This document shows positions 45,223 through 58,379 of a stretch of DNA of 64,000 nucleotides, piece after piece (position 1 is the first letter of the stretch; each line of letters begins with the position of its first letter). Source of the stretch: a virus. The stretch is from the IMG/VR virus record IMGVR_UViG_3300017788_002882, positions 1-64,000 of that record. The stretch is one strand, 5' to 3'. The translations under genes were made by a program, and so were the position numbers. The notes below the pieces were generated by a model, which did not search any database, was not told the DNA's origin, and worked only from the letters and a program-made list of their open reading frames with translations.

Positions 45223-45333
45223 AAAAACTTTTTTGTATAATATAAATAACCTGATTACAGGTTTTTACACATTAGGTAATATAGTTTTATCAAAAAACAA
45301 ATAAAGTGGAGACATCAGAATATTTATTGTTGT

Positions 45334-52912: not shown

Positions 52913-55651
52913 ATGAAAGGAACAGTATTCTCAGCCGATTTTGTCAAAGACTCTAACGGAAACTTAAGATTATTAGAACTGAACACGGATACAGGGTTTA
53001 TAGATCAGGAATTAGTAAATTTTGATTTCAATGGATTCTTGACTGTATTGTCTTCTAATAACATCACAACATTAGACATTATTTATAAACCATTTTTGCA
53101 CATTGATTTTGTTAATAAATTGATAGAAGAGGTGAATAATACCTTACCACTTATTTCAATCACCTTACATGATGAAAACATTAATTCAATCTATCCGACA
53201 TCAGTTCCTGATGCCGCAGATAAATTTGTGTTGAGATTAGCTTACGACGAAACTGCAATATTTGATAGTGTTTACTGTAAAAATAGATTGAATGTTTATA
53301 ATTTGTTCACTGAAGGTTCAATTACAGACAACTGTGTTGGTTATTACCATTCTTCATCTTTGGGAACTTTTGACACCTTAACAAAAGAGGTAAATGCCTC
53401 TAATATACCAGATGCCGCGATAAAAGACATTTACGAATCATTCAATCCAATTGATTTTTACAAAATAAATGTTGACAATGGAACAGTTGAAGAAAATTGG
53501 GATAATTTTATTCAAGATAAATCTGCAGAAGATATTCTGATTGAACAATACCATTTTCATTCGTCAACTCTCGATGAGAATAACCACGTTACGTCTATCA
53601 GATTTTTTGCAATAGTATATGGCCCTAATTTAGACATTCTTCCTTTACATAGTTACAAAATAAGTTCAATATTCGAACTACCCACTTCGATTGATTTGGA
53701 AGAAAACTCAAATAAAGTGAAAGATTATCATTTTTATGAATTTGCAACTAATATGTTCAAAAAAGATTCTGCTGGAATCTTATCTTCACACGAAGTTTTA
53801 ATGGGGGACCAAACTTGGGAAGAAATATCCGAGATTCAGGTTGGAGATAGTATTCAATCTTATTTAATTAGTGGTTCACCACAAAGTGAATCTGATTTAA
53901 ATTCTTTGAGTTGGAACTATGAAGGTGACGAATTTCCTGAAGGGTCTTATCTAACAACCTCCAATGTAGTATTCAAAGATGTTGCCAATTTAAAATATAA
54001 TTCTATGATGGAAATGGTAATAGATAGTGATTCATTATTTTCAGGCATTAATAAAAAATATTTAGTCTATGATAGTTTAACTAATAAAAGTAGTTATAAA
54101 TTTATCTCAGAAATCAATGCAATTACAGACTACCTTTATGACATAAATGGACAACTAATTCAAGTTGATGAACTAAATTTTTATGTATCTTCAGAAAATG
54201 GGTTGTCGTTTGTAGAACTTGATGTTGAAGATTCGGACACTTATATTATAAATGGATCTACAGCGTTTCATAGTGTAGTTTCTCATAACGCTCCTTGTTT
54301 TGTAGCAGGAACTCCGATTTTGATGGCAGATGGAAGTCAGTTGAACATTGAAGATGTAAAAATTGGTGACAAAATTTTATCATTCGATTTTAAAAATAAT
54401 GATTCAAAAATTGGACAAGTGCTCAATATATTTTCAAGAAAGGTTAATAAAATTGTCGAATATGAATTTTCTAATGGTGGAATACTCAAATCTACATTGG
54501 ACCATCCATTATATGCTTTAGACAAAGGATGGTCATCATATTCTGAAACCTTATCAAATAATTTGTACAGTTTAGAAGAGTCTGTTAAAAAAATTGAAGT
54601 CGGTGATACTATAAAGTTTTACGATAGTACTTCAACTATTACTCAAATGCAAGTTTTTGATGGAGATTTTACGGTTTACAACTTATCAGAAATCGAAAAA
54701 TACCATAATTACTACGCTAATAATGTCTTAGTCCATAATCGATTTTGTTTTGTAAAAGGTACAATGATTGAAATGGCAGATGGGACATCAAAAAAAATTG
54801 AAGATGTTAAAATAGATGATTTAGTAATTTCTTTTAATGAAGAAACAAAAACTAAGGAATCTCAAAAAGTTACAAAAATAGTTTCCCCAATTCACAACGA
54901 TTTAGTAATTTATCATTTCGAAAACGGTAAAAATATTACTTGTACATTTGACCATCCATTCTATGTAAATGGTTTAGAACTAGCTTCATATAAACCTTCT
55001 TTGACAAACGACAGATATAAACTTGGTGTCGATGTTTCCCAAATAAAAATCGGTGATGTTGTCAACTTAATTGATGATACGTTTACTACAATAACTTCAT
55101 TCGAGGAATTAGAAAAGTCTCAGACTGAAACTTTTATATTTGAAGTAGAAAATAATCATAATTTTTATGCAAACGGTATTCTTACTCACAACAAATTCTG
55201 TTTCATAGCAGGAACAAAAATTTTGTTAGAAGACGATATCGAAAAAAACATAGAAGAAATACAAATCGGTGATGTAGTTTTATCATATAACGAAGAAAAA
55301 AAAACCATCGAACCCAAAAAGGTTACAAACACTTCTTCACCAATACATGATGATTTAGTAGAATATACTTTATCGAATGGGATTAAAATAACTTCAACTT
55401 TTGACCACCCGTATTATGTTAATGGTTTGGAACTTGCGTCTTACAAACCAGAGTGGACCAATGAAAGATACATTTTACCTTCCAATGTGATTGAAATTAG
55501 AGTTGGAGATTTTGTAAATCTGTCTGACAATGAAACTGTAAAAATTGAATCTATAATGGAATTAAGTCGAATTAACACTCGGACGTATATCATTTCTGTG
55601 GAAGACAATCACAATTTTTACGCAAATAAAATTTTAGTACATAACAAATAA
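52913..55651 (+). CDS. Circularly-permuted ATP-grasp-like domain followed by four tandem Hint (intein-like) domains
   Basis: N-terminal SADFVKD.NG.LRLLELNTD; Hint domains at G288-N459, C462-N609, C612-N760 and C763-N911 with CF.AGT starts, T.DHP block B and terminal HN. Confidence 0.85.
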   Translation: MKGTVFSADFVKDSNGNLRLLELNTDTGFIDQELVNFDFNGFLTVLSSNNITTLDIIYKPFLHIDFVNKLIEEVNNTLPLISITLHDENINSIYPTSVPDAADKFVLRLAYDETAIFDSVYCKNRLNVYNLFTEGSITDNCVGYYHSSSLGTFDTLTKEVNASNIPDAAIKDIYESFNPIDFYKINVDNGTVEENWDNFIQDKSAEDILIEQYHFHSSTLDENNHVTSIRFFAIVYGPNLDILPLHSYKISSIFELPTSIDLEENSNKVKDYHFYEFATNMFKKDSAGILSSHEVLMGDQTWEEISEIQVGDSIQSYLISGSPQSESDLNSLSWNYEGDEFPEGSYLTTSNVVFKDVANLKYNSMMEMVIDSDSLFSGINKKYLVYDSLTNKSSYKFISEINAITDYLYDINGQLIQVDELNFYVSSENGLSFVELDVEDSDTYIINGSTAFHSVVSHNAPCFVAGTPILMADGSQLNIEDVKIGDKILSFDFKNNDSKIGQVLNIFSRKVNKIVEYEFSNGGILKSTLDHPLYALDKGWSSYSETLSNNLYSLEESVKKIEVGDTIKFYDSTSTITQMQVFDGDFTVYNLSEIEKYHNYYANNVLVHNRFCFVKGTMIEMADGTSKKIEDVKIDDLVISFNEETKTKESQKVTKIVSPIHNDLVIYHFENGKNITCTFDHPFYVNGLELASYKPSLTNDRYKLGVDVSQIKIGDVVNLIDDTFTTITSFEELEKSQTETFIFEVENNHNFYANGILTHNKFCFIAGTKILLEDDIEKNIEEIQIGDVVLSYNEEKKTIEPKKVTNTSSPIHDDLVEYTLSNGIKITSTFDHPYYVNGLELASYKPEWTNERYILPSNVIEIRVGDFVNLSDNETVKIESIMELSRINTRTYIISVEDNHNFYANKILVHNK

Positions 55652-55654
55652 ACT

Positions 55655-55807
55655 ATGGATATTACAAAACACCCAAATCTATATAAAAAGAAACCACTAA
55701 GCGAAGTAAAGAATAGAACAACTTCATATTTGTCTAATACTGAAAAAGCTAGATTAGACAGTGTAATCAACAAGTTTTTTGAATTATTCATCGCTAAACA
55801 TTTGTAA
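55655..55807 (+). CDS. Small basic protein (50 aa)
   Basis: Manual translation MDITKHPNLYKKKPLSEVKNRTTSYLSNTEKARLDSVINKFFELFIAKHL; starts after a 3-nt gap following the Hint gene stop, TAATG overlap with the next gene. Confidence 0.7.
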   Translation: MDITKHPNLYKKKPLSEVKNRTTSYLSNTEKARLDSVINKFFELFIAKHL

Positions 55808-56262
55808 TGGATGCATACAATTACATAAAAAATCATGTTTTTGTAAAACTTAAACCAAGCAAAATTTCGGGTGTAGGAGTCTTTGCGATTAAGGAAATTC
55901 CAATGGATACAGAATTGTTTCATGTGTGGGAAGGTAAAACTGGATTCTATCCCATTTCACAGACCGAATTGAATGATTTGGATTCTGATTTACAAAATCA
56001 CATTCATGATTTATTTTTATTATCTACTCAATTTCCATTAGACACTAATATCTATGTTAAGTTGACTAAAGGTTGTCATTGGATTTACACAAATCCATAC
56101 TATTTTGTTAATAGTGGGTTTTATACTAAAAATGCAAACATTGATAAAGAAAGTATGAAATCAATCGAACATATTAGGAAAGGTGAAGAACTTTTGAGTA
56201 ATTACCAAAGACATGAAAAAATAGATACACAATTTTATGGTTCAGTTAATAAAATTATCTGA
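55807..56262 (+). CDS. SET domain protein
   Basis: LKPSKI.GVGVFA...I, FVNS and I.KGEELL.NY. Confidence 0.8.
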   Translation: MDAYNYIKNHVFVKLKPSKISGVGVFAIKEIPMDTELFHVWEGKTGFYPISQTELNDLDSDLQNHIHDLFLLSTQFPLDTNIYVKLTKGCHWIYTNPYYFVNSGFYTKNANIDKESMKSIEHIRKGEELLSNYQRHEKIDTQFYGSVNKII

Positions 56263-56836
56263 TAAATTCACAATTTACAAATCTCACGACGAGAATTTTT
56301 CTAATATCAAAAACGATTGCATCAAATATGTGAAATTAAATGATTCATTAGTTATTCACCCAACTCCACAAAATAAAAACAATTCAATTTGGGTAGAAAT
56401 AAAATCTGAATGTTTTTTAACCATTAACAACTTAATCAAAAGTCATGTGGAAAAAATTTCTGGTGAAAAATTTAAAAATTACGCTGAACATTTTTGGATA
56501 TATACCCAAACTAAAGGGTTTAATTTAGAATGGATGCATCAACATCTATTAGTTCATCCACCTGGAGTATCATTTATTAAAACAGATTATACTTTCACAT
56601 ACTATTTTCAAACCCCAACTGATATAAGTGGAGATGAGGGTCACATAGTATTTGAAACTGAGGATGGTGTAAGACATAAGTTTTTACCTGAAGAGGGAGA
56701 TTTTTTTATTTTTCCAGCAGACATACGACATACTGCAATACCGACTCCTAACTCTGAGATAGATAGAATCGTTTACGCAGGAAACCTATGTTTAAACATT
56801 GAAAATCAACGAGAAATTGGGACAACTTTAATTTAA
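56237..56836 (+). CDS. Putative 2OG-Fe(II) oxygenase (TIGR02466-like)
   Basis: HQH...YY......G...F....P.EGD..IFP....H...P....R...AGN. Confidence 0.8.
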   Translation: MVQLIKLSDKFTIYKSHDENFSNIKNDCIKYVKLNDSLVIHPTPQNKNNSIWVEIKSECFLTINNLIKSHVEKISGEKFKNYAEHFWIYTQTKGFNLEWMHQHLLVHPPGVSFIKTDYTFTYYFQTPTDISGDEGHIVFETEDGVRHKFLPEEGDFFIFPADIRHTAIPTPNSEIDRIVYAGNLCLNIENQREIGTTLI

Positions 56837-56844
56837 TAAAAATC

Positions 56845-57318
56845 ATGACACCATTTGAATATATAAAAAACTATGTAGTGAGTGCACTAAAGCCAAGTCG
56901 TATTCACGGAGTTGGATTTTTTGCAATCAGAGATATTGAAATTGGTGAATCAATATTTAATCCTTGGTTTGGTGAAAGTGGGATATATTCTATCGACCAC
57001 GATGAATTATTTCAATTACCAACGGAATTACAAAAAACAATGTTAGAAACTTTTGACAATAAAATATTCTATATTAACAAAGAAAACCAAGAACAATACA
57101 TAGAAAAAGAGTATGGTAAAATTTTCTTCCCATTAGAAAAAGGGTTTCATTGGATTTATATTTGGCCGAAAACTTTTATTAATAGTGGATTAAATAACGC
57201 GAATGTCGATACAATTAATCATGTTAATCCAATTGCATTAAGAAAGATATACAGTGGCGAAGAACTATTAGCGAACTACGGCTCAGAATTTAAGACTACT
57301 CCGAAAAACTTTATATAG
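56845..57318 (+). CDS. SET domain protein (paralog of 55807)
   Basis: LKPSRIHGVGFFAIRDI, FINS and ALR.I..GEELL.NYG. Confidence 0.82.
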   Translation: MTPFEYIKNYVVSALKPSRIHGVGFFAIRDIEIGESIFNPWFGESGIYSIDHDELFQLPTELQKTMLETFDNKIFYINKENQEQYIEKEYGKIFFPLEKGFHWIYIWPKTFINSGLNNANVDTINHVNPIALRKIYSGEELLANYGSEFKTTPKNFI

Positions 57319-57335
57319 AAACCCCTATAAAAAAA

Positions 57336-57890
57336 ATGACACATAATGTAAAATACAATTGGGAGTTCAATAAAGAAGACATACTTCGAAAAGTCTATAA
57401 AAATAAATCCCTACTGAAACAACCAAATGGTAATACATCACAAAACACAGATGAATTAATGTTTTGTTGTAGAGAATTTGACTCCATCAAAAATTTTGTT
57501 GTTAATCAGTATTTTGAATTAAAAAAAACTCAACATGTAGATTATGCGGTCAGTATGTGGTCTTACATCCAAACAAAAGATTTGCCTCCATCGAATTATA
57601 TATGGCACACACACTCAAAATTAGATGGAGGTAGAACCCAACTTAAAACTGATTACACATTTGTTTTCTATGTACAAATACCCCCAAATTTGGAGAATGG
57701 GGAAGGTGACTTATTGATTAAAGATAAAAACAATCATATTCATAGGATTACACCAAAGGAGGGTGAAATCATTTTTTTCCCTGGATATTTATGGCATGTT
57801 CCAACACACACACCAACATCTACTATTGATAGGGTTGTTATTGCGGGAAATATTTCTTCTGAATTTTTATTAAATACCGTTTTAATATAA
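57336..57890 (+). CDS. Putative 2OG-Fe(II) oxygenase (paralog of 56237)
   Basis: WHTH, KTDYTFV.Y.Q.P, P.EGE..FFP..L.H.P and DRVVIAGN. Confidence 0.8.
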   Translation: MTHNVKYNWEFNKEDILRKVYKNKSLLKQPNGNTSQNTDELMFCCREFDSIKNFVVNQYFELKKTQHVDYAVSMWSYIQTKDLPPSNYIWHTHSKLDGGRTQLKTDYTFVFYVQIPPNLENGEGDLLIKDKNNHIHRITPKEGEIIFFPGYLWHVPTHTPTSTIDRVVIAGNISSEFLLNTVLI

Positions 57891-57895
57891 TAAAT

Positions 57896-58372
57896 ATGAT
57901 CACTTACATACCCAACTTCCTAAGTAATTATGAATGTGAATATTATATTAATTTGTTCAAATCAAATGATATAGAGTTTATGGAATGGATTCAAAAAAAA
58001 AATAGACTTGGTGATAATGATGTACTAAAATTTTATTACACAGATATAACAGATAATAAATTTGAGACCGACAAGTTTCCCAATTATATTTTCAAAAAGT
58101 TAAGAATACAAATGGTGAACGAATCAATAGACCAATGTAAAGCTCCACATACTCATGTGAATCCATGGTCGTTTGTCATTTTCCTGAATGAAAATTTCAT
58201 TGGGGGAGAATTAGTTTTCGATAATATCGAATATGAACCAAAAACAGGAGATATGGTTTATTTTTCTGGAGAAGAGAGGCACAAACTTAACAATTGTGTC
58301 GGTGATAGATATACTCTCATTGGAGGGATGCAAAATAATCCTTTAAACGTGAAAACAGGAAAATTAATTTGA
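57896..58372 (+). CDS. 2OG-Fe(II) oxygenase (prolyl-hydroxylase-like fold)
   Basis: FLS..EC, PHTH, FLNE.F.GGEL.F, P.TG....F....H and G.RYTL. Confidence 0.8.
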   Translation: MITYIPNFLSNYECEYYINLFKSNDIEFMEWIQKKNRLGDNDVLKFYYTDITDNKFETDKFPNYIFKKLRIQMVNESIDQCKAPHTHVNPWSFVIFLNENFIGGELVFDNIEYEPKTGDMVYFSGEERHKLNNCVGDRYTLIGGMQNNPLNVKTGKLI

Positions 58373-58379
58373 ATGTGGA

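Follow-up and report, generated by a model that had tools for sequence, protein, structure and literature searches.

A Phage Gene That Joins a Circularly Permuted ATP-Grasp Head to a Tandem Array of Hint Domains

The stretch of DNA considered here (the window) covers the first 64 kb of a viral contig of 101.7 kb, IMG/VR record IMGVR_UViG_3300017788_002882, whose completeness CheckV puts at 33%. On its plus strand, at positions 52913..55651, lies a gene consisting of a single open frame with no internal stop. It encodes a protein of 912 amino acids, made up of an ATP-grasp head, a degenerate Hint domain, three Hint domains of the type-A bacterial intein-like (BIL) kind, and a terminal lysine. 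The junctions SHN-AP-CFVAGT (residues 457-467), VHN-RF-CFVKGT, and THN-KF-CFIAGT can all be read in the translation, as can the C-terminus, VHNK-stop, just as an initial annotation made from the letters alone had reported. That annotation counted four Hint folds, the first of them half-disabled, and the count holds: Hint 1 is recognized by its modelled fold and Hints 2-4 by Pfam and by their motifs. The tandem-Hint feature is real and lies far beyond chance. The residues that follow the four Hints (the +1 residues) are A, R, K, and K, all of them non-nucleophiles. In a structure model of the full-length protein, the domains are confident and the predicted template-modelling score (pTM) is 0.50, with the predicted local distance difference test (pLDDT) falling below 50 at the junctions (residues 449-462, 610-616, and 760-764).

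Residues 1-284 (52913..53764, plus strand) form, judging from a fold model and from conservation, a circularly permuted ATP-grasp amide-ligase domain. The core of the protein (residues 1-460), folded by itself, gave a model with a pLDDT of 94.4 and a pTM of 0.90. An exhaustive structural search with head residues 1-282 matched the glutathione-synthetase-like GSS22 (Z 10.3), YgiC of E. coli (Z 9.8), and GspS (Z 9.4), and further matches were to the glutathione synthetases of trypanosomes and plants, to trypanothione synthetase, and to the fungal ligase Cp1B. Every fold match listed belongs to the circularly permuted branch of the ATP-grasp enzymes, and the alignments begin at residue 1 of the model. 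Non-permuted ATP-grasps (ArgX, LysX, RimK, and TTLL) align only from about residue 50 of the head, as would be expected if the Mg-binding strands had moved to the N-terminus. The initial annotation had proposed a circularly permuted ATP-grasp ligase resembling glutathionylspermidine synthase, to be checked by modelling and Foldseek. An ATP-grasp fold was found by that check, and the Z scores of 9-10 agree with Foldseek (E 1.6e-5 for the head against YgiC) in favoring a permuted ATP-grasp of the kind represented by GspS, YgiC, and the eukaryotic glutathione synthetases.

What the head has in common with these ligases is the fold and the permutation, with the D...E-x-N strands, predicted to bind Mg, placed first (Z 8-10 over 200-220 residues). 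It differs from YgiC in being only 284 amino acids long, lacking about the first 90 residues of that protein (model residues 1-279 correspond to chain residues 94-378). No member of the permuted group fused to a Hint domain turned up in fold or literature searches. As to what such enzymes do, Cp1B is an amide-bond ligase, and YgiC and YjfC of E. coli are peptide-spermidine ligases (cited in PMC12568646).

Conservation was counted in an alignment of 120 relatives. Four residues of the head (D9, E22, T25, and D118) are invariant, and four others (N24, R108, K171, and R230) are at least 95% conserved. Six of these eight (D9, E22, N24, R108, K171, and R230) are candidates for the binding of Mg and ATP. 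The N-terminal motif D9...E22-x-N24, to which the initial annotation had drawn attention, is therefore not only present but invariant or nearly so. This degree of conservation supports the view that the head is an active enzyme. Sequence models have nothing to say about it: a Pfam scan of the head at E values up to 1 gave no match, nor did the head find one when the family profile was compared with PDB sequences. One relative matches GSP_synth (PF03738) at E 0.11, below the cut-off, which leaves the head outside that Pfam family. Feature-based matches to ATP-grasp clusters score 0.88-0.90 and are leads only. Because no sequence model recognizes it, the head is, at the level of sequence, a new family.

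Hint 1 (residues 288-459; 53774..54289, plus strand) has the HINT fold, with Gly288 at position 1 and no block B. Pfam does not detect it. Modelled residues 285-460 match the BIL domain of C. thermocellum (2lwy) with a Z score of 19.3 and a root-mean-square deviation of 1.6 Å over 138 residues, and the model matches BIL2 of Tetrahymena (6tmm) with a Z score of 18.7. There is neither a TxxH motif nor any cysteine in the domain, which lacks the N-terminal nucleophile, and the column at position 1 is occupied by Gly in 99 of the 120 relatives and never by Cys. The C-terminal residues E439, D442, H458, and N459 are retained, each in at least 95% of the relatives (H458 in 118 and N459 in 119 of them). 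With Gly at position 1 and no Cys, Hint 1 should form no thioester. The domain is thus one-sided; as a predicted C-terminal Asn lyase, it would cut only after Asn459.

The other three Hints, also on the plus strand, have all the usual catalytic residues. They are BIL 1 (Hint 2; residues 462-609, 148 amino acids; 54296..54739), with C462, TLDH, and HN; BIL 2 (Hint 3; residues 612-760, 149 amino acids; 54746..55192), with C612, TFDH, and HN; and BIL 3 (Hint 4; residues 763-911, 149 amino acids; 55199..55645), with C763, TFDH, and HN. An endonuclease does not fit within domains of 148-149 amino acids. Pfam finds three stretches of Hint type (Intein_splicing, 3.4e-24; Hint, 4.1e-19; PT-HINT, 3.3e-14), and the family profile, compared with the PDB, matches Tetrahymena BIL2 (6tmm) at 2.7e-26, the C. 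thermocellum BIL (2lwy) at 3.2e-24, and the best true intein at 2.4e-14. By sequence, then, Hints 2-4 are closest to type-A BIL domains. They exhibit the HINT fold without an endonuclease, Cys1 together with TxxH, and His-Asn without Cys, Ser, or Thr at +1 (HN-R, HN-K, and HN-K). The same is true of the known type-A BILs (that of C. thermocellum, 2lwy, and BIL2 of the polyubiquitin-like BUBL locus of Tetrahymena, 6tmm and 6y75), which are about 140-150 amino acids in length and which provide both the best sequence matches of Hints 2-4 and the best fold matches of Hint 1. A class 1 intein would look different: here the Hints are appended at the C-terminus, are absent from 28 of 114 relatives, and are followed by A, R, K, and K.

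One match of the canonical Hints lies outside this circle. Their top Pfam match, ahead of all Hint models, is AXH (the Ataxin-1/HBP1 module, PF08517), with an E value of 3.2e-35, and Ataxin-1 AXH structures are among the matches of the family profile, at about 1e-12. Kinship between AXH and the BIL-type Hints may account for this, as may a Pfam model that overlaps both.

Type-A BILs, with His-Asn and no +1 nucleophile, mostly cleave, and they can also ligate their flanks, when the amine freed after Asn cyclization attacks the N-terminal thioester (PMC4031507). In the case of Tetrahymena BIL2, the bond formed is a Lys isopeptide, and the N-extein is handed over to substrates (PMC8616854). These precedents, overlooked in the initial annotation, bear on its contention that the phage protein cannot splice canonically. 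Canonical class-1 splicing is indeed impossible, because no +1 residue is Cys, Ser, or Thr, but the contention went too far insofar as it excluded a splicing-like ligation, since type-A BILs do join flanks.

Across the family, the catalytic residues of the BILs have been preserved. In 137 BIL domains, Cys1 is found in 130, His-Asn in 118, and TxxH in 118, and in 118 junctions, the residue that follows the HN of a BIL is Lys in 76, Arg in 27, Phe in 7, and Thr in 2, and it is never Cys or Ser. Had the array been an inert tandem duplication, one might have expected Cys1 to be lost; its presence in 130 of 137 domains and the retention of the other catalytic residues argue against inert copies. 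Nor are the copies recent. For any given BIL, the nearest sequence is that of the BIL occupying the equivalent place in another protein; copies within its own protein are never the closest, on which ground recent tandem duplication was rejected (BIL 2 and BIL 3 of the protein considered here are 56% identical). Judging from these sequence comparisons, the BILs are old positional orthologues.

A variant of the last Hint deserves mention. In 14 of 114 representatives (e.g., P0019, P0122, and P0138), it has Cys1 but ends in SGLGDN...K-x-Q rather than in His-Asn. Such Hints are Hedgehog-like or type-B-like; they could make only the N-terminal cut, which would leave the preceding spacer (e.g., RAPV) as a thioester.

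Homologues of the core number more than 700 when clustered at 90% identity and 265 representatives at 50%, with 160 loci in IMG/VR, and all of them begin at the same Met. Copy number and spacers were tabulated for the 114 full-length representatives at 50% identity. No BIL is present in 28 of these, one in 42, two in 37, and three in 7, and on the core tree copy number switches at least 35 times, as compared with 59.5 times when the labels are shuffled. The BILs are thus, on the evidence of the family's sequences, dispensable for the 460-amino acid core, and that core, consisting of the head and Hint 1, appears as the conserved unit.

The spacers that separate the Hints are conserved to different degrees. 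Spacer 1, Ala-Pro (54290..54295, plus strand), was examined in a close clade of 121 proteins, with core identity of at least 57%, of which 116 could be scored: all 116 have either AP (64) or SP (52). Spacer 2, Arg-Phe (54740..54745, plus strand), retains the Arg in the close clade, followed by 0 to about 10 residues, with RF replaced by R, RA, RT, RAPVS, RVIVT, and others. Spacer 3, Lys-Phe (55193..55198, plus strand), is KF, KA, KS, or KT in relatives with three BILs. Over the family as a whole, spacer 1 ranges from 0 to 14 amino acids (it is missing from 17 of the 85 BIL-carrying representatives and consists of a single residue in 8), and spacers between BILs range from 1 to 29. The commonest two-residue form of spacer 1 is x-Pro. 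The initial annotation proposed that the three spacers give defined dipeptide products, and it named linkers of random length in homologues as a finding that would tell against this. Judged by that criterion, variable spacer lengths of this order, together with a copy number of BILs that runs from 0 to 3, argue against such products.

Beyond the last BIL lies a single residue, Lys912 (55646..55648, plus strand, from the translation), the +1 residue of BIL 3. Lys is the last residue in 66 of the 114 representatives (58%), while Lys makes up 5.4% of residues overall, an enrichment of about tenfold, and this holds for members without BILs (15 of 28) as well as for those with them (51 of 86). In members without BILs, tails of 1-84 amino acids directly follow the His-Asn of Hint 1. 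Some of these tails are rich in Cys (21-84 amino acids), and others are rich in Pro or Lys, such as KPKQPKK, KVKIEPPK, PAPPPKL, or a single K. The spacers of the protein considered here, joined to one another and to the final Lys, would read APRFKFK, similar in kind to the short Lys-ended tails of BIL-less members. This fits the idea, without proving it, that the BILs interrupt a short Lys-ended tail. In deep-branching relatives (P0244-P0268), the core is directly followed, in place of BILs, by peptides of 21-84 amino acids with at least 6 Cys, many ending in Lys. It is possible that these are released as knottin-like peptides.

Downstream of the Hint gene lies a set of genes found in related loci as well. 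The first encodes a protein of 50 amino acids (55655..55807, plus strand), beginning 3 nucleotides after the stop of the Hint gene and ending with a stop that overlaps the start of a SET gene (TAATG). This small partner seems to be translationally coupled to both of its neighbors. Of 85 related loci, 84 have an equivalent open reading frame (ORF) of 43-53 amino acids immediately behind the Hint gene, with Y10 invariant and K11 and H49 at least 90% conserved. The partner may be a substrate, an acceptor, or a subunit of the ligase. No longer protein containing the partner was found, which counts as weak evidence. After the partner come genes encoding SET, 2-oxoglutarate (2OG)-Fe(II) oxygenase, radical S-adenosylmethionine (SAM), and sulfotransferase proteins. 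Within about 10 kb of the Hint gene in the 85 loci, homologues of the 2OG oxygenase occur in 75, of radical SAM enzymes in 50, and of SET proteins in 28. One related locus, L025 (IMGVR_UViG_3300025897_002116), has a separate ORF of 166 amino acids, resembling the Hint gene, three genes downstream of it.

Most of the downstream enzymes have one feature in common. Thirteen of 15 consecutive ones, of unrelated folds (55807-64000 of the window and on to 65942 of the contig), end in Ile (-LI, -II, -FI, or -PI), while 7 upstream genes for glycosylation and methylation lack the terminal Ile. Terminal Ile also marks 237 of the 567 ORFs found downstream in related loci. The residue looks like part of a shared C-terminal docking tag. 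Loci with one BIL have on average 3.9 tagged neighbors and those with two have 3.3, and the value of 8.4 for loci with three comes from 5 loci only. No clear relation is visible between the number of BILs and the number of Ile-tagged neighbor genes.

The initial annotation placed the gene at the head of an operon of tailoring enzymes. It does stand at the front of a conserved set of such enzymes, but it is situated inside a plus-strand block that begins at 45.5 kb (45544), and scans for promoters and terminators, which gave no signal above that of shuffled sequences, do not support the notion of an operon head. The sequence TATAAATA, found 23 nucleotides upstream of the Hint gene, was discarded as being on the wrong strand. 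Elsewhere, a copy of TATAAATA resembling a T4 late promoter lies at 45241-45248 (plus strand), in the divergent gap between the end of a minus-strand block (45222) and the start of the plus-strand block.

The virus is most likely a jumbo T4-like phage, because complete relatives (214-326 kb) encode the T4 capsid protein Gp23 and because genes for gp46/47-like nucleases are present in the window. An origin among the nucleocytoplasmic large DNA viruses was also considered; three related contigs gave no match to the capsid of such viruses, but the controls gave no signal either. A tblastn search with the head found nothing in 50,697 phage records, the whole protein matched only unrelated phage inteins (at about 30% identity), megablast of 24 kb found no match, and no close relative appeared in the contigs of prokaryotic genomes that were searched. 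Within these phage records and prokaryotic contigs, then, no isolate or cellular genome was found to carry the head. The viral structures in BFVD yielded matches to the Hint domains only, and literature searches turned up no paper on an architecture combining a ligase with an array of Hints.

How might such a protein work? By analogy with known systems, the gene product may be a self-processing precursor of a phage amide-ligase module, from which the BILs remove themselves, and to this reading a probability of about one half may be assigned. According to it, residues 1-284 would be an ATP-dependent carboxylate-amine ligase of the circularly permuted ATP-grasp kind. Hint 1, having kept the residues of blocks F and G, would cut the bond after Asn459 by Asn cyclization and do nothing else. 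Head and Hint 1 would together make up the invariant 460-amino acid core of the family, to which is added a variable tail, mostly ending in Lys, interrupted in this instance by three type-A BILs. Each BIL would form a thioester at Cys1 and cut after its His-Asn, and it may also rejoin its flanks through attack by an amine, as type-A BILs and Tetrahymena BIL2 do. The products would be a 52-kDa enzyme (ligase plus Hint 1) and three free BILs of about 17 kDa each, with either the scraps AP, RF, KF, and K as the remainder or, where ligation joins the flanks, a single heptapeptide, APRFKFK. The two-residue spacers would be remnants of the junctions rather than the purpose of the protein.

Several considerations weigh against this account. 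While the folds, the conservation, the variation in copy number, and the synteny are matters of observation, all of the chemistry (the individual steps, the substrates of the ligase, and the ligation of flanks) is argued from analogy. The array itself may have been selected for something, a thought suggested by the fact that the BILs, which could be lost through a single stop codon, are old positional orthologues with their catalytic residues intact. All 116 of the close homologues scored have [AS]P ahead of the first BIL, a constancy not required of a mere linker. Moreover, the N-S acyl shift of inteins is usually slower with Pro at position -1, and N-terminal cleavage by the first BIL may therefore fail.

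The protein may instead resemble a source of ribosomally synthesized and post-translationally modified peptides (RiPPs), a rather unlikely account. Hint chemistry would release the variable, Lys-terminated peptide that follows Hint 1, and the tagged neighbors and the ATP-grasp would then tailor or ligate this product. The peptide would be APRFKFK here, after BIL ligation, and in relatives it would be represented by longer spacers or Cys-rich tails; BIL-less members do have tails of 1-84 amino acids after His-Asn, many rich in Cys or in Pro and Lys. The tenfold enrichment of terminal Lys speaks for it, as does the company of 2OG oxygenases, radical SAM enzymes, and SET proteins within about 10 kb. 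RiPP cores typically are hypervariable and lie between conserved processing sites. Against it, some members would free only one Lys (for example, a 460-amino acid member that ends HN-K), no peptide motif is conserved besides the basic +1 residue and the terminal Lys, and action of the neighboring enzymes on the tail is a supposition.

A bolder version of this proposal, also rather unlikely, has the enzyme itself as the leader in an autocatalytic route. Its product would be the hypervariable Lys-ended peptide behind the one-sided Hint, either APRFKFK after the joining of BIL flanks or the spacers as amine-free thioesters. Hint chemistry, not a protease, would release or cyclize the peptide, after which the -[LI]I-tagged neighbors, the ATP-grasp head, and the 50-amino acid partner would add hydroxyl, methyl, or sulfate groups to it or ligate it.

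Alternatively, the BILs may conjugate proteins in the manner of BUBL. Through its thioester, each BIL would transfer whatever precedes it to the amine of a Lys (the +1 Lys, Lys11 of the partner, or some other, hypothetical target), attaching the ligase with Hint 1, or BILs, without expenditure of ATP. This possibility is a doubtful one. The closest solved relative, Tetrahymena BIL2, is indeed a maker of Lys isopeptides (PMC8616854), 76 of 118 junctions have Lys at +1, and the partner has an invariant Tyr10 next to a Lys11 kept in at least 90% of relatives. However, the first BIL is followed at +1 by Arg, which is a poor nucleophile, and the partner-less core architecture persists in members that have no BILs, which means that conjugation cannot be what the core is for.

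A role that does not call for catalysis seems very unlikely. The extra Hints would serve to dock the -[LI]I tails of neighboring enzymes, or else would be inert tandem duplicates in decay. The prevalence of terminal Ile, both in the enzymes downstream of the gene and in related loci, can be cited for docking, and so can the mean of 8.4 tagged neighbors in three-BIL relatives, the highest seen, though over only 5 loci. But one-BIL and two-BIL loci are alike in this respect, and 86-95% of 137 domains retain the catalytic Cys1, TxxH, and HN, which neither a scaffold nor a dead copy would need.

Least likely of all is the original notion that His-Asn upstream and Cys1 downstream of each spacer release Ala-Pro~, Arg-Phe~, and Lys-Phe~ as free-amine thioesters, bound for diketopiperazines or an acceptor: the chemistry is possible, each spacer lying between a kept His-Asn and a kept Cys1, and the prevalence of x-Pro in spacer 1, with [AS]P fixed in the close clade, would suit it (Pro in second place favors diketopiperazine formation), but even close relatives differ from one another in place of RF and KF, spacer 1 is absent or a single residue in some representatives and later spacers vary from 1 to 29 amino acids, canonical Hints are entirely missing from 28 of the 114 representatives, and the single Lys after the last BIL cannot be a dipeptide.

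The arrangement has partial counterparts elsewhere. Known BILs sit singly between real protein domains, for example between ubiquitin-like domains in BUBL, whereas the phage BILs are found three in a row, head to tail, at the C-terminus of an enzyme, separated by two-residue gaps and placed behind a fourth, half-disabled copy. The Pretoxin-HINT domains of polymorphic toxins (PF07591, matched here above the Pfam cut-off) likewise lie near the C-terminus and release what follows, but here only Lys912 lies behind the last Hint: there is no toxin domain, and the cargo amounts to one residue, or to 1-84 amino acids in relatives without canonical Hints. Mini-inteins share the catalytic residues, and the order His-Asn, spacer, Cys1 mimics that of the engineered SICLOPPS layout (split-intein circular ligation of peptides and proteins), in which a peptide is set between C-intein and N-intein. 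Unlike these, the phage Hints are whole domains rather than halves, have no conserved site of insertion in a host protein and no +1 nucleophile, and are optional in relatives.

Hint domains are known as selfish inteins, as processors of Hedgehog proteins, as agents of toxin release, and, in one ciliate, as dispensers of ubiquitin that need no ATP. In the present family, found in hundreds of large phages of marine and freshwater origin, a stable array of up to three active-looking BILs follows a predicted ligase, a design that is common in viral metagenomes. The block of genes around it is conserved and also encodes the tiny partner and the tagged enzymes (oxygenases, methyltransferases, and radical SAM enzymes). 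An array that does no more than remove itself would give intein-like elements a new habitat. One that delivers peptides, or that conjugates proteins, would represent a new viral post-translational chemistry and a possible source of tools for protein ligation.

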